A stretch of 63,976 nt of DNA, counting the filler, from Dugesia japonica (taxonomy: Eukaryota): the NCBI GenBank assembly GCA_001938525.1. It is 7 parts of 7 records of this genome, joined end to end, with 100 filler letters (N's around TTAATTAATTAA, not from the genome) between each part and the next. Parts side by side here need not be neighbours in the genome. Positions count along the whole stretch, not along the records: positions 28,329 to 38,246 come from MQRL01607009.1; 6 more parts are not named here. One strand, 5' to 3'. Both the position numbers and the translations under genes were made by a program. Positions 10,233 to 58,229 of the stretch are shown here, in pieces. The first letter of the stretch is position 1; every line of letters starts with the position of its first letter. The notes below the pieces were generated by a model, which saw nothing but the letters and a program-made list of their open reading frames with translations, ran no database searches and was not told where the DNA came from.

Positions 10233-11270
10233 ATGTCTCAGGATGACAGTATAATTTAAGAAATCGAGAAATTAAAATTGAAAACGATAGTGATATGAAG
10301 GAAAATGTCAATGTTACTGAAGACGGCAATGTATCTAATGGATCCAATTGTTAGAAATTACCTGTTGCGCAGTACGGAGGAGATTTTGTGAATTTTGTGG
10401 ATTTTATGAGAGATTATTATATGTATAACAAAGCCTATGTATGGCCAGAAAAAATTATGGTAATAAGGTTACCACTTTATTTAAAGGGAGCTGCGAGAGA
10501 CGCATATTGTCAATTAAATGCAGCAAAATTGGATACTTGGGCGCATTGCAAAGATGCACTAGCTGAACGATTAGTTAGTGAAGATGTTGGCAGAATTATG
10601 AGAAAGAAATTCTATAACCGAGTTCAAAATGAAAATGAATCTGTAAATGAATTTGCATTTGATTTAAGCACTTTGTATGAAATAATTAATAGACAATCAC
10701 CAAAAGTTTGAAAGAAACAGCAATTTTCAACAAATATCTCCAAAAAGAACCGTAATATGTTTCAGGTGCCTAGCAAAAGAGCATACTGCTAATCAATGTC
10801 GCACAAAGTTATTCAATGAAGGAAATCGAGAAAGTAGAAGATCAATTAAATGCAATAATTGTGGACGATTAGGAAATTTATCTAGAGATTGCACTGCACC
10901 AAGGTCACGTAGCCCATCAACCTCTCGATCTCCACAAAAAAATCGGCTGAATTTTAAAAGTCAACAACAATGCTATTCACGCAAAAAGTATGGCCACATT
11001 GTAAGATCATGTCCAAATAATGTGGATCGATTTCATAAACCAATATTAAAGAAATCGGTAAAAATTGATAATAATCCTGTAGTAAATGCTACTTTCTCAC
11101 CTGATAATGATTTCAGAGGAAATTTTGAGGCAGAAATGGATGAAATGAGACAAAAATTGGATAGATTCACTACAAATGGCTCGGATAGTGAAAATGATAA
11201 TCTAATGATATTTTTTGAAAATGAAGATGCAGAAATTGATAAAAAGATGCCAGAAAACAATTGTCAAATT
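10233..11270 (+). pseudogene. gag: Ty3/gypsy-type Gag (capsid plus two CCHC zinc knuckles), disrupted
   Basis: RLPLYLKGAARDAY and FYNRVQNENESVNEF (retrotransposon gag/MHR-like); knuckles CNNCGRLGNLSRDC at ~10851 and CYSRKKYGHIVRSC at ~10970. Confidence 0.88.
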
Positions 11271-11299
11271 TCACCCATTATTGACGACGTGGTAGTGGA

Positions 11300-11670
11300 C
11301 AAAGGTCGAATTTTATATCCACATTTGTCGAAAAATATCGAAAATTGCGAGCAAGATATGTAAGAGATCTTAACAATTTTGAAGGAATTAACGAAAATGA
11401 AGTTTCCATTAGAAAAATTGGAAAACGTAATGAGAAAATGTATCTCGAATTTTGGTACTGGAGTAAAGCATATTACTGATATGAGACTCGTTATGGCGAA
11501 AATTGGTCAAGAGATGCAAAGAAATTCTTGGTTAGAAGACATATGTGTAGTTATTGTTAATGAAAATGACGATAAACCTACGAGAAATATTAGTGCCTAC
11601 AGTACTGTTAAAGAACAAACTCAAACGATCAGCGAACTTAAAGGATGGAAAAACGTTAAATTGAAATTTG
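11300..11670 (+). pseudogene. Divergent Bcl-2-like domain, copy A, directly upstream of the env signal peptide
   Basis: ILYPHL...ISELKGWKNV with the same 111-codon LYP-to-GW spacing and the same position relative to env as copy B; one in-frame stop at 11361. Confidence 0.45.
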
Positions 11671-11771
11671 CTAATCAAATATTGAATGATATAGATACTT
11701 ATATTGTGGATATTAGAATGAAAAAGCAAGCCAAGCAAAGAAACACTCTATTTTCAACGAAATTTGGGGGC

Positions 11772-13180
11772 ATCTTACCATGGTTGTTTATAATGATCAT
11801 TATGATTAGCCTGGTTAATAACACATCGTCACTAACCACTTATGACTGTTCACATACCGAATTAGGAAAGTTTTATTCATTAGTCGATGTGGCGGAATGT
11901 CAAGGAGCTTATCCATTGAAACTGAAAACTGAGGAAAATGTACCATATTATATTTATCGGCAGTCAGGTTTTCGTCGGACAATGGTTTGCGAATGTATAG
12001 TGAAACGAACAACTTTTATCTTCTATTGCATAAAGTGGAGTCATTCGTCATTAAAAGATTTTAAATCAATACCAAGGTCAGTGGATATCACACCTGAAAA
12101 TTGTAAATCGGCTTTTCAAACAAAGGAAATTAAAATTAATGCGGAGATTAAACTATCTGCGAAAAAGAATTTTATTATCAGAGAATCATTTACCGTTAAA
12201 GGAAAACTTTTGGAGAATGGAGATTTTGAGGGTGAATCTTAAAAAATTGTGGAAAGTATTGTTGATAAAACAATGATTGTTGAAGAGTATTCAACAGAAT
12301 TACGAGAATTTGAAGGGACGTTTGACGAAGTAACAGGACAAAGGCAAACGCACCCGTTTTGTGACATGTATAGTACTTGTTGTCACACAGGAGAATCTAT
12401 GCCTGTGTATAAAGTAAAAGTAAAGAAGTGTAATTTAGTTCAATTGAAAAGGACAGAATTTACTGAAATAGCTGGGGAACATATTAAAGTCAAACTGGAT
12501 GTTTCTATAGTTCCTAAAAATGAACGTGGTAGACAAATGTCACCTGTCGAAAGAAACCCAACACCTATTGTGCTTGTAACATCAGTAAAAGAGGAAGGAA
12601 TGAGATTTATAAGAAAAGAAACTGTCATAAAATGCGGTTAAACAGTATACGAAACAAATTATAAAGGTGTATATGTGTCCAAATCAAGAATTGAAGATGC
12701 TAAGGAGAATATACATATTCCGGAAATCAAATTAGCGCAATATTTTAATAATAATATAGTCTTTATTTTTCATTTTCAAATTGGAACAATATCAAATTTA
12801 TATCGGGAAATAATATTAAATGATTGTAAATTGAACAGAGAAATTTTACAAAGTCGGATGACAATGGTAATGACAAACCCAAATGTGGTTGCACCCATGC
12901 TTATTGATGAGAATGGGATATTTGCTAGAGTCTTGGGGGAAGCATTGTATAGGTATAAATGTAAAGAGATACCGGTTAAAATCATAAAATATGATGAATG
13001 TACGAACAAATTGCCAGTTAATGTAGATGGAACATTGAGATTTATGGAACCTATAACAAGAGTGTTAATAGATAAAGATTCAAAGCCAAAGAAATTAGAA
13101 TGCAATCGGGTGTTAGCACCTTTAAACAAATTAGCTCCTGATACTTGGATATCATTTCCAGGCAGAAAACAATTAGAGCC
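11772..13180 (+). pseudogene. env: Envelope glycoprotein, chuvirus-G / herpes gB-like class III fusogen, copy A (C-terminally truncated)
   Basis: Signal peptide ILPWLFIMIIMISLVNNTSS, then LTTYDCS...YSLVDVAEC, ECIVKRTTFIFYCIKWSHSS, NDCKLNREIL and GIFARVLGEALYRYKCKEIPVK...ECTNKLPV...FMEPITRVL...C; single frame with stops at 12240 and 12639. Confidence 0.8.
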
Positions 13181-28328: not shown

Positions 28329-28400
28329 TTTCGTTTCGTTACGTCACGGCGGGGGGGGGCTCTGCATGTGTGTGCGCCAGTGCGCTACTATCTATCTACT
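28329..28400 (-). mobile_element. Probable Maverick/Polinton-type terminus related to 9027-9100
   Basis: Reverse complement begins agtagatagatagtagcgca...gcagagccccc...gtgacgtaacga, with the same motif order as 9027-9098. Confidence 0.45.
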
Positions 28401-28789
28401 TTGGATAGAATTGATAATAGTGAAAGGCCTGGTATTTATACAATTAACGATATTGAGAAGGCGCAAAAACATATGCTTTCCCCAATACAAAGAGAGAAAA
28501 TAATATCAATAATGGTCGATAAATTAGCAAGAAGGAGTAATGGAGACGATGTAAATTTTGAATCACTATTGCACGCAGATCATTTTAAAAGGACAATGCG
28601 CAATTTTGTAGATAGATTTTTGGGGGAATGCAATGGTTTGGCAATATATTCTCATGTATTTTATTTGGGTGGTATGTATTAACATTTTTAAAATTAGCAG
28701 GTCATCAAATACTTTCTCTAAGACAATTACATGCAGTTTTTGGTTACACATGGAAATTAGGAGCATGTTTCTGCCCATTTATTGCAAAA

Positions 28790-31700
28790 CCATAGTGAAA
28801 AAATAAAAAATCTAGAAAATAATCGAGGCGTCTATACAGTAAACTTAGATGATGAGCAGGAGTTAAAAAAATTAACTAATGATAGATCATCAGGTACAGA
28901 ATATAAACCATATAAACAAGAAAATATTGAATTAGAACAGATAAAAATAGATGATTCAACACAATATAAATATCAAAAGAATTACTCAATGTCAGTCATA
29001 GATTCGGAAAATAATAGACCCACAACCGATATTATAATAAATGGAATTAGTATACCTTTATTAATAGATACAGGAGCAGTATGCTCAATAATAAAAGAAC
29101 CATGATTAAATAAAGCCTAAAGACAGAAAATAAAAAATTATAAACCAGAAGGTATAAAATCATTCAGAGGTCATATAATAAAAACAAAAGGCATAATTGA
29201 ATGTACGGTCTTAATTGGACAAGAAATTGTGACACATCCATTTAGAGTGATGGAAAATGGAACATAAAATTGTATTTTAGGTATGGATTTTCTGGAAAAA
29301 TTAAAAGGGTACGTCATTGATCTACAAGATAGCACATTAAAAATGATAACATCATTACCGGTGCAAGATGTAGGTAATGTAATAATAACAGTGAAACGCT
29401 GTAGCGAATGTATAATACCTGTAAATACAGAAGTACAGAATAATAAATCATATATTTTTGAACCAAATGATAAATTGATAGAAAAACATAATTTATCAAT
29501 AATGTCTGGATGTGTAGAGCCAAGAAAAGGGATAATACCAATGAGAATAGCTAATTACAACAATTACGATGTAAAACTCCGAAAAAATACAAAATTAGGA
29601 AAATTGTTTGAAAATGGAAATGAATATGAAATATATGAAATTGTAGTTGAAGAACAAAATAAAGAGTGAACTTACAGAGGCAGAATGAACAAGCCCAAAA
29701 TACAAAATCAGTGAAAAAGGGTTGTCAACTAAATAATCATGAATTATCTGAACTTATAATGGAAAAACAAGAAAAAATTGATAAAGTAATTGACAAAAAA
29801 TTAATAAAACAGAAACAAGCAAAATATTATGAAAAAGCGAAAATAACAAATACAGATCTTACTATAAATCAGAGACAACAACTACAGAAATTATTAGATA
29901 AATATGAGCATGCATTCGCTAAACATGAGTTTGATATGGGAGGAACAAATATTATAAAACATATAATCGATACAGGTGATGCAAGACCAATAAAACAACG
30001 ACCGTATGTGGCACCATATGCGTTAAGACCAGAAATCAAAAGACAAGTAGCGGAAAAGAAAGCGAATGGAATCATACGAGATAGTTTTTTTCAATGGGCA
30101 TCGCCAATAGTACCAGTTAAAAAGAAAGATGGTGAAATTAGAATGTGTATCAATTACAGAAAACNNNNNNNNNNNNNNNNNNNNNNNNNNNNNNNNNNNN
30201 NNNNNNNNNNNNNNTACATGAACAATTTAATAAATTAATGAATGCAAAATATTTTGCAAGTTTAGATGCTAATAAAGGTTATAATGTATACCTAGTACAA
30301 GAAGAGGATCAAGAGAAAACAGCATTCTGTACTGATGATGGACTATATGAATTTGTTAGATTACCGTTTGGACTATGTAATGCACCAGCTACATTTCAAA
30401 AATTAATGAACACAGTGATAACAGGTGTGGAGCATGTAGTTGTATATGTGGATGATATACTCATAGCATCTGAAACATTTGAACAACATTTAATTAATAT
30501 AGAAAATGTATTGCCCAGATTTAGAAAAGCGAATATTAAACTAAAACATAACAAAATGTAAATGGGCAGAGGAAAGTGTTTTATTTCTCGGACATATTGT
30601 ATCATCAAAGGGATTGGAGCCAAATCCAGAAAAGATAAAAGCGGTCCAAAAGTTTCCAGTGCCAAAAAGCGTACAACAATTACAAGGATTTAATGGGTTA
30701 GTGGGATATTATCGGAGATTTATACAAGGTTTTGCAAAGATATCAGCACCATTGGTAGAAATAACAAAAGGTATGAAAACAAAAGGTGAAAGTAAAAATG
30801 TCATGATTGTAGAACAATAAGATGAAAAATCAAGGAAGCCTCAGAAGAAATGGGGCCCAAAACAACAAGAAGCTTTTGATACATTAAAACAACGATTGCT
30901 AACAGCTCCAATATTAAGATACCCTGATTTTACAAAGCAATTCATAGTAATGACAGACGCAAGTGGATTTGCCATGGGAGTAGTACTCGGTCAAGAAGAC
31001 GAAAAAAATTAAGATTATGTAATTGCATATGCCAGTAGAATGTTAAAAGGAGCAGAGACAAGGTTTTTAACAATTGAAAAAGAATGTTTAGCTATCATAT
31101 TTCCGTTAAAACAATTTAGACCATTTATATATGGAACAGAAATAATTATCCGAACAGATCATAAACCATTAAAGGGTCTATGGAAAAATAAAGATGCATC
31201 CAGTAGAATACTGAAGTGGGCAATGAAAATCCAAGATATGAGCATACGTATTATATACATGCCAGGTAGAGCAAATAAAAATGCCGATGCATTATCAAGA
31301 ATTCCGGAAATAAATATATTAGAAATGATGTCAATTGTTATGACAGGAACAAACCCAAAAATGTTTTTGGAGGAACAAAATAAAGATATAAAATACAAGA
31401 GGTTAAGAAGATGATGCTTCAAGAAAAGAATACTAAATATAAAATGTATAAGAATTTGCTTATGTAAAATAATTTAGGAAAAAATCTGATGGTTGTACCA
31501 GATTCTCTAAAACAATTGTTATTATTACAATATCATGATGGAGCGCTCAGAGGGCACTTGTCTACTAGAAAAACCACGTCAAGATTACTACAAAAATACA
31601 ATTGGGATAATATCAAAGAGGATGTAAAGAAGTGGTGTCAAGCATGTAGTATCTATGCCACAAGAAAGAATACAAGAATAAAAACCAAGGTTCCATTACA

Positions 31701-32580
31701 ACCAATGCCAATACCCAGCTCACCAATGGAAACATGTGCAATGGGTTTTTTTAAGCAAGTTACCAACAACAATAAAAGGCAACAAACATATATAAGTATT
31801 CAATGATTATTTTACAAAGTGGGCAGAGGCATTTCCTACAAAAGATGAAACAGCAGATACAGTAGCAAAGTTATTAGTTGAAAAGATAATATACAAATAT
31901 GAAGCACCAAAAAAGCTGCTATCAGATAGAGGGAAAGGTTTCCTCAATGAAGTCATACAAAGAATAACAAATATGTTCGATATTAAAAAAATTAATACGA
32001 CGGCTTATTACCCACAAACTGATGGGTTAGTTGAAAGATTTAACGGTACATTATGTAATAGATTGGCAGTTTTCGTAAATAAACATCAAAATGATTGGGA
32101 TCTATTCATTAAACCAACATTGTTCATACATAATACAACTGAGAACGAAGCCACTGGATATTCACCATTTTATCTTATGTATCTAAGACAAAATCATATG
32201 CCTATAGATATAAAATTTGAGCCAATTTTATCACAGTATATGGATAATCCAGATTATGTTACGAAAATGCAAGAAAGATTACAAGAAGTATATAAACAGG
32301 CCAATCTAAAAGTAAAATTCAAACAGGATCAATACAAAGACTATTATGACAGAAAACCTAAAAAACATAATTTTAAAGTAGGAGATAAAGTGAGGATAAA
32401 GACACCAGTTACACAAAAAGGGTTAACAAATAAATTAGCAAGACCTTATAAAGGTCCATATGAAGTAGTAAAAACAACTCTTGCGAACTTGCACGTATAA
32501 AAAATAAAAAAGATGATCCCAAGATTGTGGCAGTTAACCAATGCAAAATGGCAGATGCAGAAACTGATCAAGATCACAAA
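28790..32580 (+). pseudogene. pol: Ty3/gypsy Pol: aspartic protease, spacer, RT, RNase H, integrase
   Basis: LLIDTGA; WASPIVPVKKKDGEIRMCINYR; LPFGLCNAPATFQ; YVDD; MTDASG; IEKECLAI; TDHKPL; NADALSR; HHCC-like YHDGALRGH...CQAC; YPQTDGLVERFN; YKGPYEV. Many stops and frameshifts. Confidence 0.96.
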
Positions 32581-33457
32581 ATTCATTATCACTCTTTGCA
32601 CTAACTTTAGTGACATTATTAAAAATAGGCGCAGCTCAGCTGGAGAAAGAAGAAAGTTTTGGTATTATAAAAGTGATAATATATTCCAATAGAATCGTAC
32701 TCAAGGCACCAAAAAATATAGCAATCGCTGCAACAATAAAAGAGCAAGTAATCGAATATGTCACAGCAAATGAATACATCACGAAGAAGAGATATGTTCT
32801 CAAAGCAATATCAATAAAATTTAACAAAGGATAGGCCAGATAGAAATAAAAGGACTAGAAGCTGATACAACATATAGTATTTGGATACACTATAGAATGA
32901 GTGGAGTCAAATAATTGAGACAGTAAAGATTACACTACCAATGAAACTAATTGCATAACAAAGATATTTAATGACTATTTCAAAAATACAGGAAAAACTG
33001 AGTACAACAAAACCACAGACAAAGGCAAAATTTATGACTATCCCTACAAGACAAGAGAAGTTGAGTACAATCAAACTACAGATAGAAACAACTGTTCATC
33101 ATAATACACTAATACATAGTAGTTCTACAGGGAAAACGACAACAAATGCGATGACCAACAAAAATTCAAAAGGAGATAGAAAGACTTTGAATAATAACAT
33201 GAAATTAGATCATCAACAACNNNNNNNNNNNNNNNNNNNNNNNNNNNNNNNNNNNNNNNNNNNNNNNNNNNNNNNNNNNNNNNNNNNNNNNNNNNNNNNN
33301 NNNNNNNNNNNNNNNNNNNNNNNNNNNNNNNNNNNNNNNNNNNNNNNNTATAGGTGGAAGAGGCAGCGTTATCGGCGTCGCAGTGCCCCACAAATTCCGA
33401 ATTATGTCCAATGGACATTGGTTTGAACACCCAATACCAAATTTGCAAAAAATGTTA
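32580..33457 (+). pseudogene. Accessory ORF: signal peptide, FN3-like domain, Thr-rich repeats, Cys-rich tail
   Basis: SLSLFALTLVTLLKIGAAQ leader; IEIKGLEADTTYSIWIHY matches the FN3 tyrosine-corner pattern; duplicated MTI...QEKLST.K.Q repeats; ends QCPTNSELCP...ICKKC*. Frameshifted and interrupted by a gap. Confidence 0.45.
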
Positions 33458-33808
33458 AAATTCTATATCATTATTTATATATATTTTTATTTATATAATA
33501 AGCTACTAATACATGTGGTAGTATATAGGACTAGTCAGTCCTTAAAATCAAAAATTAATTATTCCATTCTTTTAGAAATAACATCTCAACAAAAGATATC
33601 AGAAACAAGCCAGATCAATCAACACATTATAATTTATAACAGAAAAAACACAAAATACCATTCCTTTACACATTACATAATGTAGTCAAAACAGCACGTT
33701 ACACACATTCGACAATCAAATAATAATATACAGAAAACACATCAATACAAGCAAGCAGAACATAACATAACAAGAAAAGATAACAAAAACAGCGAATTAG
33801 CACAGTCA

Positions 33809-34994
33809 ATGCCCAATAAATCTACACATTCGGCAAACATTCCTTCATTCTCATCCTTAGTCACAAAAGGTGTCGCGCATTTTTATAACCATATACAAAG
33901 TTTTGTGTTCAAAGTTAAAGATAGTGAGCCTAGGATAGAAGTTTTTAATGGTGCAAATACAATCCCGAATGTCTTAAAGAACAACACTTTTGATAAAGAT
34001 ATCATTATGATACGATTTCAGAAGGCTCAGAGATACTCACTACAACAATTGATTGGATATATAGAAATAGAGTGAGATCCACAAGAAGCACTAATAAATA
34101 GCAAACGAGTACTTAAAGAAATTAGATTACATGTTACAAAAACTCCTATTAGATTCTCATATAAAAAGAGATATACATATGCTTGCAAACAACACATTGA
34201 TATTAGAAGGACAAATAGATCCAGGAATGAACGAAATAAAAGTTGCAATACACGATATTCCAGCCGTTCTTTGTGTAGAGTTAATTTATCATGATCGTAT
34301 TCCTGTACCTTTCCCTACATATACTGCTATAAAAGGGCATTGCGCAGTAAACTATATAGATTTAATTAACTATACATCGTTCCTCAAATATGCAATCTTA
34401 ACAGAAACTGATATTGAACAATTAATAGTATATGTAGATATGATAACAGTCAAGGATTCATATTTCAATCTGCAAGTGGTAGAGTTGACTATATTAGATA
34501 ATAAAGGAGAAATTATATTGGACCAAACCCTATGTCAACGAGAAAGGATAAAGCATTTTGACACGCCGAGTACAGGGTATACCCATGAAAAGATAAAGAA
34601 ATTTCAAGATGCATATCCTATAATTCTGAAGGCACGGCAGTTACTGTACGGGAAAATACTAGTCGACTTTGAATTAGGAAATAAACTAACGAGTCTACAC
34701 ATTGACCACAGACATGTTATTGGTATCATAGATCTTGCGGAAGACAGATGGCATAAGACGTATACTCCAAATGTAAAGAAGTTGAAATTGATCCACCATA
34801 TGGAAGCAGTATTCAAATCCATAAGGCAGGATAGGGTCATCGGAGATATGTTGAAAACAGCGAGAGAAAAAGCGCAGGAATCAACAGCAAAACGAATAAC
34901 ATTCATAAAGATTACATACAAACAAATAATTACTCAGCAAACATGGCAAGATTCTATATATCCTGGTAATAATCCGGTTATGGAAGGTATATAA
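33809..34994 (+). pseudogene. Accessory ORF ending in a REX4/ISG20-like DEDDh 3'-5' exonuclease fold with altered catalytic residues
   Basis: LIVYVDMITV...VELTILDNKGEIILDQTL...IKHFDTPSTGYT...LLYGKILVDFELGNKLTSLHIDH...IIDLA follows the REX4-family pattern VAIDCEMV...ARVSIVN..G.V..D....SGI...LL.GKILVGH.L.NDL..L.L.H...DTA. Confidence 0.7.
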
Positions 34995-34999
34995 AATAA

Positions 35000-35740
35000 T
35001 GCGCCAATATTGCAAGAAGTCATGACTAGAGAAAAGGAGAAACCAGATAGTGTGATATGAATATTAGACTCTGGAAGAGAATAGAGAAGAGACAGATGGA
35101 AGCACATATAGTCAATCCAATATGGGTAATGACATGGATATAGAATGGGACGAGGTAGACTTACCAGAAGAACGTAGATTACATAACGACACTGGTGAGC
35201 AGCAGAGACTGATTGATGATATAATACAACGAAATCCTAAAGAGATACAAACTGATATGGACGCATCTGAGGTTGACGAAATTCCAGAAAGGACCATGTC
35301 ACAAAGAGACCAAAAGGAGTCTGAAAGTGAAACTGAATACTGGTCAGGTGAGGAAGTGGAGGATCTTAGTTTAGATCAAGTAAGAGGAGATCGCGAGGTA
35401 ATAACGTATTATACGAATAGCGACAGTGATGATCTTGGTCCTGAGCCACAAATTGATATATATGAACCTGGTACTGTCAATTTAAATAGAGCCATCAAAA
35501 TAGATAAGTTGGATGGAAATATTAACAATGCAAAAATAACTTTGTAAAGGATATCGGGTAAAGATATGCAACTACAGTTTGGAAAGAAACGCATTAGATT
35601 GACAACCATTAAAGAAGATAGTAAGAAGACATTAAAGTTTGTTGTTGAAAATGTTTTGCTTAACACCATTGCTGTCACGAAAAGGGTGCCACTCTTACAC
35701 TTTCCGTTAACAATGATTAAAACACATTATATATATCTAG
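35000..35740 (+). pseudogene. Accessory ORF, strongly acidic, unknown function
   Basis: ORFs 35122-35547 and 35566-35802 are in one frame separated by a single stop; D/E-rich. Confidence 0.45.
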
Positions 35741-35798
35741 TAATTATTATTATAATGTCTTTCTTTTTATACCTATTATTGATATTATATATTTTAGA

Positions 35799-37076
35799 AT
35801 GAATTCCGATTTTCAATCTCAGCAACTATTTTTATTAGACAAAACACGCATCATATTATATGAAAAACATAGAAGCCTCACGAATCCTTATAACTACTGT
35901 TGGCAGGACATTGAATTAATTATCTTGTTCATTGAAGACGACCCCATATGTCCCTTATGTTATGACCAGCCTTTATTACCTCGAATAGCACCCTGTGGAC
36001 ACTTCTTTTGTTTCGCTTGCATAACCCAATACTTTCATGTCACCAACTCTGATAATGTACCTTGCTCTTCTTGTAGAACTCAAAGAGTATTTAACACTTA
36101 ACTAAAACGTGACAACTTTTGTTACATTACTCGACCCCATATCGAACAATTCATTCCATTAACCCTCCTGATTAAAATGCCATATAATAATTGCACACGT
36201 TTTGCTCATCTTACCCATGTAATTCAGCAGATGGATGTCCCTGATAGTTGTAACTCCATTAGCGATTTCCAAGACATCTGCATCCAATACGATTCTCTAT
36301 CAATAAAACAGATTAACAACAACATTAGGACAGTTAATTATGGCCAGTTCACAGCAGCGCAAAAAAGGAAATTGATCAAGCTACTTAAAATTGAAAGAAA
36401 ACATTTTACATTCAATATTAAAATTCTTGATAAGTTTGAACACGAAAAGTCGTTCACAGATAAGACCCGTAATGAGGATAAATTCAATCTCCTCGCCCAT
36501 TACTCTACACTAACAAATGTTGAGTTATTTTACCAAACAGCTATCTTCCCACGAACTTTTCTCAACAATGTGCAGACAAAAATGTTTTTAGACAATCAAT
36601 CTGAAGACATTCCCTTTCGCATGGGTGGATACATCACAGCCATGGAAGAAGTAATCGTTGATCACCATTTAGATCTAAATAGACCATATCATTTCCTACC
36701 TAATCGAACAAAAATTAGAATAGTGACAATCCGAATGGAGACATCCTCCACCTCAAGACATCTTGGCCCATTAAGTTATCTACACATTCATGCCAATATA
36801 ACAAGGCTAGCAATAGAGAGGCGTAATAAAGATTTACAAGATATCGCAAACGAGAGTAAAGCTAGAGTAAAGCCGGGTCAACTGGCCAGAATACTCACCC
36901 GTCACTCCAATACAAAAGCAATGGATATTTTCTCTAGAAGCCCTTCTGTTTGCCCATCTTCCATAAATCCAGAAGCCGAATTCCCGGCATGTATTTTCAA
37001 TGAACCTTGTTCCAATGATACCTTTTCACCGTATCACGATATTGCATGTCCTTATTTCGCGTTTACCCAAAGATGA
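35799..37076 (+). pseudogene. Intronless RNF10/Mag2-like C3HC4 RING E3 ligase inside the retrotransposon (426 codons, one internal stop at 36099)
   Basis: QLFLL...WQDIELI...CPLCYDQPLLPRIAPCGHFFCFACITQYF...CSSC, then LK...IPLTLLIK, FYQTAIFPRTFLNNVQTKMF and YHFLP...IRIVTIRM; these follow the order of RNF10 blocks (ELFLQAN, W..VEQV, RING, FYQAEDGQHMFLHP.N...L, YLSHLP..CEFSICEL). Confidence 0.75.
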
Positions 37077-37091
37077 TGGAGCATCTTTTTT

Positions 37092-37101
37092 GGAGAGGGA
37101 A
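37092..37101 (+). promoter_or_regulatory. Polypurine tract
   Basis: T-run followed by ggagagggaa, 4 nt before TGTTG. Confidence 0.7.
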
Positions 37102-37105
37102 CGTT

Positions 37106-37826
37106 TGTTGAGGTTTGAATGTACAAGCATACAATACACACAACACACAAAAAACAAGCAGAGTAATATAACTCAAAATCTATTCAATCAAAATCTCCAA
37201 ATCAATTATTCAATCCAAGTCCTCGAATCAAGATTAATCAATCCAACTCAAATATGCTGATATTACATTTTATTATTATGTCTATTATTATTTGTAAATT
37301 AATTTGAACTGAAAATTTTACAAATATGCTGACATTACATTTTATTATTATGATTGTTTGAACCTGAAAATTTTATGTTTATTATTATTTGTAAATCAAT
37401 TTGAACTTTATTATTGTTTGTAAATTAATTTGAATTAAAAATTTTATGTTTATTATTATTTCTAAGTAAAATTGTTTTGAATTTTGCACTAGGCATGAGG
37501 CCTAGTGTAAATTTTACTATAAATACTGACGTATGTCAGTTTATTTTTCAGACATTTTTAATTAAGGAAACCTCTTTCTTTAAGTGGCTTTCCTTCTTTA
37601 AATAAATTATTGCTTATAAGGTTAAGCGTATATCCTAAATAACTATTTTGAAAAGGTGATTGCTTATTCATTTATATAAGGAAGTATACAATATATAACC
37701 ATATTTATATTTTTGATAAAATATCGTCTATATAAAATATAAATCACACACAATATTACAATTATCTTAATCATTTATAACTATACTATACGAACCATAA
37801 ACTTTTGTTGAGTTAAATACCCAACA
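37106..37826 (+). repeat. Candidate 3' LTR
   Basis: Begins TGTTG right after the PPT; internal tandem repeats and TATAAAT at ~37518; ends cccAACA like the 5' LTR end at 10129. The right boundary is inferred because no second LTR is in the window. Confidence 0.55.
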
Positions 37827-38617
37827 TAACTTTGAAAATTATTTTGGAACTGCTGCAAAATTAATTGAAGACATGGATAAAGGAAAAATAATTGAAGAAA
37901 TTATAGAAGAAGAAAATACAATTATTGAAAAACAAATTCCGGATAATCAAAAGATGGAAGTGACTTGCGATTGTTACTGTAAGGAAAAGTTAAAATATTA
38001 ACTAAAAATTTCATGTTGTTTTAAATAACTAAAAATAGAGAAGGTCGTTAAAGAAAATATTTAAAAAGTGTAAGTAGTTAAAAACTTACGGATTTGTTAA
38101 TTTATTGGATTGCTTTATTACTATTGATTGCGAGACTTTCTGGTCCTGTTTGGTTTATCGATTTATTTGGGAATATTTATTATTGTGTCATTTATTTCGT
38201 GGAAACTGTTTATTATTAATACGTGAGTATTTATTTGGTATTGTAANNNNNNNNNNNNNNNNNNNNNNNNNNNNNNNNNNNNNNNNNNNNTTAATTAATT
38301 AANNNNNNNNNNNNNNNNNNNNNNNNNNNNNNNNNNNNNNNNNNNNAAAATTTTATAATTTTAAATTTTTATAATTTTATTATAATTTGTAAAATTGTCA
38401 AATTTCTGATTTTCAATAAAATATATTTTTATTGTATTTTTAAATTTTACATTATTAAAATTTTAAATAAACTTACTCAATGGAATATTTTAAAAAATGC
38501 TGATTTTTGATACTTTGCGTTTCGAATATAACTTTTTAAATTGGTTTTTAAAAAACAAATTTATATTCATCGTTTTGTTTTTGTGAATAAATCTTTTATG
38601 GAATCTAGTTTTATTAA

Positions 38618-43198: not shown

Positions 43199-44140
43199 TC
43201 AACAAACATAAAATCTTCTCACCATATCCAAATCATTTCTTGATGTAACATGGTTGTAATCAATTATATCNNNNNNNNNNNNNNNNACAACATTTTCTCC
43301 AGGAACACAAGCGAATCCGTAGCTTGGATAGTGCATAACACTGTTTGTTTCATAGGGTCCATCTACTTCACAACCTTCACATTTTACGAACTGGCTGCAA
43401 TCTGTTAGATTAATTAATATTTATAATAAATAAATTTTAGTTGTCTTACGAGATGACAGAATTCTGTCCCATCTTATATATATGTGGCTGTCTCTGTCCT
43501 TTCTCATGTGTGTGTGCATGAATCCTAAAGCATGAATAAATTCGTGTTTTACTGTTCCCTTGGAATACATGCATCCTGGATTTTGTAAATTCAATGGTTG
43601 TTTCGGTCCTCCGGTGTAACCCAATAATGAATAACATCCTTGGTCCAGAGATTGTACTTCGATGTAATGAGATGCTGTTGATTCGCTGAATTTTACACAA
43701 TTTCCGAGATCTTTCTGTAATTCCACTAAGCATTCTCGAACAACACCTTTTTTGTCATTAGCTAAAACCAATCAAATTTCATCAATATCAACATGAAACA
43801 CTTACGAAATGCTGGTGCAAAAGAAAACAAAACTTGATTGTTTGGCCATCTCTTCGTGTTGGAATAATGAGCTTTGAACTGAAACATTATAAATAGTATT
43901 ATATTATTGTATCATGTCATATACAAATTGATTACTCCATTGATTAAAGCAATATCACTCTTGTCGAGAACCATATCACCCATTTGCATGCTATTCAGAC
44001 TTCGCTTCAATAATTTCTGAACACACACAAATACAAATAAATAATTTTTAATGCTATTTTACTTGTCGAGGACATCCGCATTGACCTGCCGCGTAATTTA
44101 TTGTTGCAATAATCAATAAGAAGCAAAATAATTTCTGCAT
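43199..44140 (-). CDS. Secreted astacin (M12A) metalloprotease, 5 exons, catalytic domain only
   Basis: Signal peptide MQKLFCFLLIIATINYAAG; prodomain GDMVL; RWPNN; GCYSLLG; HEFIHALGFMHTHMRKDRD; Met-turn SVMHY; short GT-AG introns (44 and 48 nt checked); stop at 43199-43201. Confidence 0.93.
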
Positions 44141-57574: not shown

Positions 57575-58229
57575 TAGGGTGTTCCAAAAAAAATTTCGTT
57601 TTTTAAAAGTTAGGAAAAATTAAACTGAACAACAACAACTATATATATTTATAAATGTTTAAATATTTAAATATAATTTCCATTCTTCTTGATTACTTCT
57701 TGCAAATGATTTTTCAAATGATTCAACTCTTTAGGTAACTTAGAACTTGTCATCTTATTTTCCATGAAATTCTGTATATATTCCAAAAGAGAATTATTAT
57801 TAGGAAATCGTTTTTTTCTTCTATCGAATTCGAGATTTCTAAATACGAATCTATTCAATAAATTTATATCAGGTGAGTAAGGTGATTGCTTTAATAATTT
57901 AATTTGATGATCTTTACAAAACTTTTGCGTTACGACAGCCGTATGAGGACGAGCATTATCATGCATCAGCTCCAGACATACAAATAAAAGTCACATTTTC
58001 GGTTGTAACGTTGTTTATTATATTGAATTTGGATGTGATGAGTAAAACAAATATATAATAATAATAAAACAAATATAATAAAACAAATAATATAATAATA
58101 AAACTTTGATATAATAAAACAAATACAGTAAGTTTATTTTCATATTAATTAATTTAAATTGAATTGATAAATGTTTATTTTAAATTGATAATTAAATTTT
58201 CCTAAACGAGATTTCTTTGGAACACCCTA
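57575..58229 (-). mobile_element. Internally deleted Tc1/mariner element
   Basis: TIRs tagggtgttccaaa / tttggaacacccta with TA flanks; ORF 57667-57966 HDNARPH...PYSPDINL. Confidence 0.92.

Follow-up and report, generated by a model that had tools for sequence, protein, structure and literature searches.

A decayed, env-carrying gypsy element of the planarian Dugesia japonica with putative host-derived accessory genes, including one for an RNF10/Mag2-like E3 ligase

Host pathways that limit mobile elements tend to be captured by them. Has this happened to the surveillance of ribosomes in planarians? The question is raised by a stretch of Dugesia japonica DNA (GCA_001938525.1), hereafter the window, which is 63,976 nucleotides long, AT-rich and assembled from contigs of roughly 9-10 kb set one after another, with N-flanked linkers between them. 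On the contig at 28329-38246 (MQRL01607009.1) lies a Ty3/gypsy element in which, as an earlier note on this DNA had described, about 4.5 kb of same-strand open reading frames (ORFs) follow the integrase; they are found at 32568-37076, and integrase and polypurine tract (PPT) are 4.6 kb apart. What kind of element is this, does the region behind its integrase belong to it, and what would the proteins encoded there do? We lean, with modest confidence, towards the reading that it is a decayed copy of an env-carrying gypsy element with host-derived 3′ accessory genes, among them one for an RNF10-like ligase that would dock on the 40S subunit and rewire the surveillance of stalled ribosomes. The parts of this reading differ in strength: the anatomy of the element is highly probable, the targeting of ribosomes by the ligase is tentative, falling a little short of evenly balanced, and the role of a second protein as a pseudo-nuclease decoy is rather doubtful.

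The most surprising part of the region is the last gene, unit C (Table 1), a compact RNF10/Mag2 relative in a retroelement. Its RING-HC domain lies above the Pfam cut-off (PF00097, 28.8 bits versus 21). When the protein, translated with X at the in-frame stop, was compared with 1.84 billion proteins by phmmer, 342 matches were obtained at E≤0.001, none of them below 1e-10, and most of the 150 matches listed begin at a conserved Trp ahead of the RING. RNF10 is named in two of the 20 matches that were checked (Echinococcus and Gordionus) and RMA E3 in one (Ficus), the rest being hypothetical, "RING-type" or unnamed. A profile made from 89 hits of 480-860 amino acids recovers the RING ORF at E=4e-24 and, collinear with it, the ORF behind the stop at E=5.5e-7 among 972 window peptides, although this test is partly circular. 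A profile of the conserved C-terminal block was therefore made from 68 hits not chosen via that block (15 possibly circular hits, five cluster members and one length outlier being left out); with 17.9 bits and E=1e-4 unit C is at the top of the 972 window peptides, and none of 500 shuffles scores as high. Eight of eight RING zinc ligands are kept, and the features that characterize RNF10/Mag2 are present, namely a C3HC4 RING with the preceding Trp segment and the conserved C-terminal block with a coiled coil. Downstream of the coiled coil there is an acidic F-P motif, where the family carries FPxL (as defined in PMC12823453); FPxL itself occurs in the tails of 20 of the 89 family hits. The expectation that the last ORF encodes an RNF10-like E3 ubiquitin ligase is thus borne out by the phmmer search, by both profiles and by the RING ligands, and at the level of profile and motif matches the relationship of unit C to RNF10/Mag2 is confirmed. 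In a tree of 87 hits and the unit C protein the latter was unplaced (support 0.46) and not closer to the RNF10 of Echinococcus, and a protein word-index search with the RNF10-like read-through gave no match. A hydrophobic run at 35713-35800, just ahead of this gene, was considered as a transmembrane helix and rejected; it is an AT-rich spacer in which other copies have one-base gaps.

Table 1. Features of the element, with positions counted along the window
Feature	Position	Strand	Basis and remarks
3′ part of gB/Monjiviricetes-type env (fusion glycoprotein)	28329..28682	+	Pfam PF24664, E=9.8e-07, 27.5 bits versus cut-off 27
Aspartic protease piece	28761..29105	+	RVP E=0.003 (below cut-off); DTG motif
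Decayed reverse transcriptase, RNase H and integrase, with numerous stops and frame breaks	30238..32500	+	RVT_1 E=2e-19, RT_RNaseH E=1e-22, Integrase_H2C2 E=4e-17, rve E=1e-6
Unit A, putative surface protein, broken	32568..33560	+	weak PDB match; multicopy
Unit B, N-terminal part and DEDDh (RNase_T/ISG20/REX4-type) domain	33809..34994	+	Atlas, SDN1 match
Acidic stretch, probably belonging to unit B as its tail	35068..35712	+	stop 35545 absent from 23 X2 contigs; no family match
AT-rich spacer; pyrimidine-rich end and TTTTAG before the RNF10-like ATG (splice-acceptor-like)	35713..35798	+	sequence; one-base gaps in other copies
Unit C, compact RNF10/Mag2-like RING-HC E3 ligase, about 425 amino acids; one in-frame stop, 36099	35799..37076	+	profile and motif matches
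Polypurine tract	37092-37101	+	sole run of at least 9 purines from 36500 to the LTR
3′ LTR-like unit, 721 base pairs	37106-37826	+	TGTTG...CAACA ends, TATA 37518, AATAAA 37601

The element that carries this gene is a decayed copy of a multicopy, env-carrying Ty3/gypsy retrotransposon. Its parts stand in the order env, protease, reverse transcriptase, RNase H and integrase, the order from protease to integrase being that of Ty3/gypsy long terminal repeat (LTR) retrotransposons. The env fragment, which exceeds the PF24664 cut-off, sits just upstream of the protease and shares a frame with its DTG motif; farther downstream this frame is interrupted by stops. A gB-type env upstream of pol is the arrangement of the GAG-ENV-POL errantiviruses of Platyhelminthes, and with the fragment in the protease frame, the layout corresponds to GAG-ENV-POL and the element is itself an env element. 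The earlier note had suggested that it might represent a second cargo-rich lineage beside the Bcl-2/env elements; a separate env-less lineage was rejected, because env occupies here a position like that in Burro, a giant gypsy element of planarians. The fragment gave no alignment with the other env piece of the window, the two covering different parts of the PF24664 profile. By eye, the interval between protease and reverse transcriptase (29268-29669) looks like the dUTPase-like insert noted for Burro; it has no Pfam match.

Does the region behind the integrase belong to the element? Other copies were studied through sequencing runs aligned to the stretch (four contig runs from three studies), in which contig depth is not equal to copy number. 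All 30 bins were covered in each of these runs, by contigs mostly 90-95% alike, and at the sites listed the number of contigs reaches 78 in pol, while it ranges from 5 to 44 over the DEDDh part and from 3 to 21 over the RNF10-like ORF. Pieces of other copies that differ by 10-19% span 33535-33877, 33819-34175, 35417-35720, 35546-35817, 35679-35938, 35941-36316, 36256-36674, 36450-36865 and 36782-37116. One contig connects the integrase (32164) with the FN3 part of unit A (32745), and three further joins are made by contigs of other copies: the ORF at 33809 with the DEDDh ORF, the acidic tail with the RING, and the RING ORF with the PPT. At the far end the last ORF has its stop at 37076 and the PPT begins 15 nt farther on, just as had been reported. 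The unit behind the PPT was taken for the LTR of the element, and this is supported by its TG...CA ends, its TATA and AATAAA signals and the PPT directly upstream, its partner being absent from the window; PPT followed by a TG...CA LTR is the Ty3/gypsy arrangement. The TGTTG and CAACA ends are each unique in the stretch scanned, and short tandem repeats occupy the 5′ part. In run X2 the summed contig depth is highest in the bins with the start, the promoter part and the end of the LTR-like unit, a pattern to be expected if these parts are common to LTR subfamilies that have otherwise diverged. The cassette occurs in many copies, contigs of other copies bridge it piece by piece, and it runs up to a PPT and LTR; its location inside the element is thus supported, short of the proof that paired LTRs would give.

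How many genes does the cassette contain? In the studied copy its ORFs are interrupted by stops as well as by frame breaks. None of the depth listed for runs X1, X5 and X6, and hardly any of that for X2, carries the stop at 36099; in X2 the 16 contigs listed at 34992 and the 23 listed at 35545 all lack the respective stop. Other copies have length differences at two frame breaks near the end of the integrase and in the FN3 part, and one of them spans the break between the ORFs at 33809 and 34131 with a single gap (33819-34175). Within the ORFs, gap-free alignments of 300-420 nt are obtained even with copies that have diverged by 15-19%. As the stop at 36099 is absent from other copies, the RING ORF and the ORF behind it are one gene, and as the stop at 34992 is absent too, the DEDDh ORF continues beyond 34994, probably with the acidic stretch for a tail; we infer the join, the frames of the two being different in the studied copy. 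An acidic ORF ending as a gene at 35547 was rejected because the stop at 35545 is not found in those 23 contigs, and the acidic protein that had been listed as a separate gene thus probably belongs to unit B; Pfam, PHROGs and NCBIfam hold no family match for it. Instead of the four genes first proposed, three are likelier: the cassette probably consists of genes for a surface protein, for a DEDDh protein with an acidic tail and for an RNF10-like E3. An internal deletion that joins 36279 to 37062 is seen in other copies, at high contig depth, in three of the four runs; this loss of most of the RNF10-like ORF is a common deletion derivative.

Unit B had been described as DEDDh nuclease-like, and of this description the signature stands whereas the nuclease is weakened, catalytic residues being substituted in the studied copy. 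RNase_T clusters make up 29 of 30 matches in Atlas (best 0.91, recognition 2780, 167 shared features), and SDN1 is the sole PDB match of the whole DEDDh ORF (E=0.23; 0.15-0.23 across searches). The catalytic residues of SDN1 are Asp144, Glu146, Asp228, His278 and Asp283 (PMC6123492); opposite the first three the studied copy has Tyr, Asp and Lys in the alignment, and by eye there is no His-x4-Asp at the expected distance in the ORF. The D, E, D, H and D of DEDDh exonucleases are therefore not in place, and the protein of the studied copy would probably be catalytically dead. Among the differing rows displayed, which are a cut of the full tables, these catalytic codons do not occur, and a pseudo-nuclease throughout the family is likely. 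A protein word-index search with the ORF gave no match, and single-sequence folds were unusable, with predicted local distance difference test (pLDDT) values of 33 and 37 and nothing but noise from Foldseek on the second.

Unit A contains a signal-like stretch, FN3-like strands, a Thr-rich stalk, an N run, and a Cys-rich and hydrophobic stretch, features that suggest a surface protein. The proposal of an FN3/mucin-like secreted protein is weakened all the same: an FN3-like strand has a weak PDB match to CRLF2 (E=1), but Pfam finds no FN3 in unit A and neither the signal-like nor the transmembrane-like stretch passes a hydropathy cut. The hydrophobic stretch overlaps a TA-rich repeat. The Cys-rich segment at 33350-33560 has a contig abundance near the level of pol, far above the flanking FN3 and DEDDh parts, and is perhaps a module common to many subfamilies.

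Are these genes maintained? Sites at which almost every other contig disagrees with the studied copy should be those under constraint. Of 40 such sites in units B and C, 36 lie at codon positions 1-2 (P=6e-4), and this bias points to selection on the cassette in the family, within what such a comparison of sequences can tell. The 40 sites are the displayed rows in the two units, those in pol, unit A, spacers, LTR and flank being left out; the site tables display 40 of 1444 and 40 of 440 differing rows by a ranking rule that the tool does not state, run X2 contributes to both pooled tables, and the test is a proxy, not a ratio of non-synonymous to synonymous substitution rates. When the three stops are removed, 33 of 37 sites remain at positions 1-2 (P=0.002). 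Taken alone, the first two ORFs of unit B give 15 of 15 (P=0.002), the RNF10-like ORF 16 of 19 (P=0.08) and the acidic stretch 5 of 6 (P=0.35); the control, pol, gives 9 of 11.

What might such a cassette do? From homology we infer that it may be aimed at the surveillance of RNA and ribosomes. RNF10 monoubiquitinates uS3 and helps stalled 40S to dissociate (PMC11604940); ubiquitylation of uS3 and uS5 is promoted by its RACK1 motif (bioRxiv 10.64898/2026.08.26.747346). In the mechanism proposed here, the three accessory proteins would probably be translated, like those of complex retroviruses, from subgenomic RNAs produced by splicing. Through its conserved C-terminal block and a RIM-like motif the E3 would attach to the 40S subunit, and it would either ubiquitinate uS3/uS5 or displace the RNF10 of the host. 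Ribosomes on the GAG-ENV-POL message, which is long and A-rich, would then be recycled instead of being lost or signalled. The DEDDh protein without catalytic residues might bind RNA 3′ ends and serve as a shield or decoy against host trimming of the ISG20/REXO type.

Several observations weigh against this reading, and each has to be set beside the explanation that it would favour. Those that concern the structure are as follows: the contig begins inside env (28329), and neither a partner LTR in the window nor a target-site duplication was found; among the contigs listed none bridges the 128-base N run at about 33.2-33.35 kb, and no listed piece bridges about 35060-35120; and depth drops about 20-fold directly after the integrase, being lowest over the RNF10-like ORF, so that many relatives of this pol may lack the cassette or be too diverged. 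The 3′ half (DEDDh, RNF10-like, PPT and LTR) might then come from a different or recombinant subfamily that was joined to pol via the scaffold gap or by recombination, in keeping with the unbridged N run between units A and B, with the want of a 5′ LTR on the contig to pair, and with depths that are strongly unequal among the pol, DEDDh and RING parts. We think this quite improbable, for strand and order are continuous, the stretch just past the gap is almost as abundant as pol, and the pieces of other copies tile 33535-37116 save for one short interval without a listed piece; even if it were true, the DEDDh and RNF10-like genes would still precede the PPT and LTR. Within unit C, two profiles from 37 hits picked by their RING give a weak C-terminal match (E=0.53) that 12 and 7 of 500 shuffles equal, the C-terminal ORF is below the recognition level of Atlas, with no family, and the RIM-like motif ends in Cys, not Leu or Phe. 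No hit is more than 26% identical to it, and its branch has a length of 2.7 substitutions per site, which fits a change of substrate. The same cassette could accordingly hold a retargeted ligase derived from RNF10, the RING of which would recruit an E2 and degrade a host restriction factor or PIWI-interacting RNA factor, with no role at the ribosome. Viral RING ligases act likewise, Burro already holds RING, BIR, BCL2 and ubiquitin-related domains (PMC6431247), and the Q-x-x-D-G core of the C-terminal block is altered in unit C. However, the pre-RING Trp segment, the C-terminal block, the coiled coil and the F-P motif are all retained in order, beyond what a retargeted RING would need, and we judge retargeting to be improbable, though less so than a foreign 3′ half.

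Other points against a selected, ribosome-directed cassette concern unit B and expression. Pfam has no match for the DEDDh ORF. In three raw RNA runs, of which 6-25% was read, 4, 54 and 6 reads among 10.5, 13.6 and 11.6 million fall on the element, nearly all of them partial and less than 95% alike, with two at 95% identity or more, and no splice joint was found in these runs; the studied copy looks silent in these libraries and its relatives give a trickle of reads. A copy so decayed and nearly silent would suit neutral cargo, that is, host mRNAs captured by template switching and carried without function, and the ORF3s of rotifer elements showed no clear departure from neutrality (PMC5408684). 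Such an origin would nevertheless leave the 36 of 40 codon-position bias unaccounted for, as well as the stops private to the studied copy, the gap-free diverged copies and the RING ligands that are intact despite about 75% divergence from cellular RNF10; we regard it as very improbable. A decayed env-carrying copy with accessory genes, including a ligase that may act on the 40S subunit, thus remains the reading towards which we lean.

How does this element compare with known systems? Planarians are already known to have cargo-rich gypsy elements (PMC6431247), and rotifer elements to have an exonuclease as ORF3 (PMC5408684). The element studied here shares a gB-type env upstream of pol, the Ty3/gypsy order of pol and a multicopy state with the HSV/gB-type GAG-ENV-POL errantiviruses of Platyhelminthes, including Smed_errantivirus_1-6 (Chary and Hayashi, PMC13524379). 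It differs in its accessory ORFs; the words "accessory", "RING", "exonuclease" and "fibronectin" have 0 occurrences in the main text of that paper. LTRs were sought there within 3 kb past POL and are given for none of the six Schmidtea elements, whereas the LTR found here begins 4.6 kb past pol; the LTR-less record of those six would fit a long 3′ accessory region without proving it. With Burro/GYPSM1 it shares an env in frame before the protease and host-derived domains of ubiquitin and apoptosis pathways (RING, BIR, MATH and BCL2 in Burro), but Burro has its cargo in ORF1 or upstream, not between integrase and PPT as here, and the domains given for it in the portion of PMC6431247 consulted include neither RNF10 nor DEDDh. 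The Juno/Vesta LTR elements of bdelloid rotifers are gypsy-like and likewise have an ORF with a 3′-5′ exonuclease fold after pol (PMC5408684); theirs is a single ORF3, RNase D-like (DEDDy) with intact catalytic residues, in contrast to the substituted RNase_T/ISG20-type DEDDh domain in a multi-gene region here. With cellular RNF10/Mag2 (PMC11604940; bioRxiv 10.64898/2026.08.26.747346) unit C shares the pre-RING Trp segment, the C3HC4 RING, the C-terminal block, the coiled coil and the F-P motif, while differing in its distant sequence, its place inside a retroelement and its length, most of the hits having 500-850 amino acids. Literature searches on RNF10 with retrotransposons, virus-encoded RNF10 homologues and captured RING ligases in LTR elements found no element-encoded ribosome quality control ligase in the text available, Repbase annotation being outside their scope, and those on ISG20-like ORFs in retrotransposons and accessory genes of Schmidtea gypsy elements found no report of such a cassette in the sources as far as accessible.

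A selected RNF10/Mag2 relative, if that is what unit C is, would make initiation-type ribosome quality control a front in the conflict between retroelements and their hosts, and the borrowed genes, if functional, would allow tampering with the ribosome and RNA quality control of the host. Herpesviruses are reported to attack ribosome quality control via deubiquitinases. In the widest form of this idea, which we consider unlikely as a whole, flatworm errantiviruses would resemble complex retroviruses in having a 3′ accessory region expressed by splicing, and one lineage of them would carry both the first element-borne mimic of RNF10/Mag2, controlling 40S quality control, and a dead ISG20-like nuclease shielding RNA ends; the region would have been missed because it pushes the 3′ LTR past the usual search window. 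It is predicted that planarian GAG-ENV-POL elements without an annotated LTR should hold accessory ORFs 3-6 kb past POL.

A few further observations concern the surroundings of the element. On another contig, pieces at 10686-15234 (+) and 16730-17716 (-) contain gag zinc knuckles and two gB-type env pieces (PF24664, best E=6e-26), with a weak BCL2-like stretch (E=0.013) before a second env start; they are Burro-like, possibly nested or converging. Animal genes are present elsewhere in the window, as a host CSRNP exon on another contig (63426-63773, minus strand, E=6e-39) and an exon of a host astacin gene (43421-43771, minus strand, E=5e-23), and there is a remnant of a DDE transposase at 57667-57990 (minus strand). 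Searches of PHROGs and NCBIfam gave no useful match, and the contig scans run beside the protein word-index searches gave none. Directly behind the LTR-like unit, the translation of the flank at 37827-38001 is an acidic peptide. Partial, loose-ended matches to it come from RNA reads of run X12, whose mate orientation is opposite to that of the few cassette reads, and the flank is probably a piece of another transcribed repeat.

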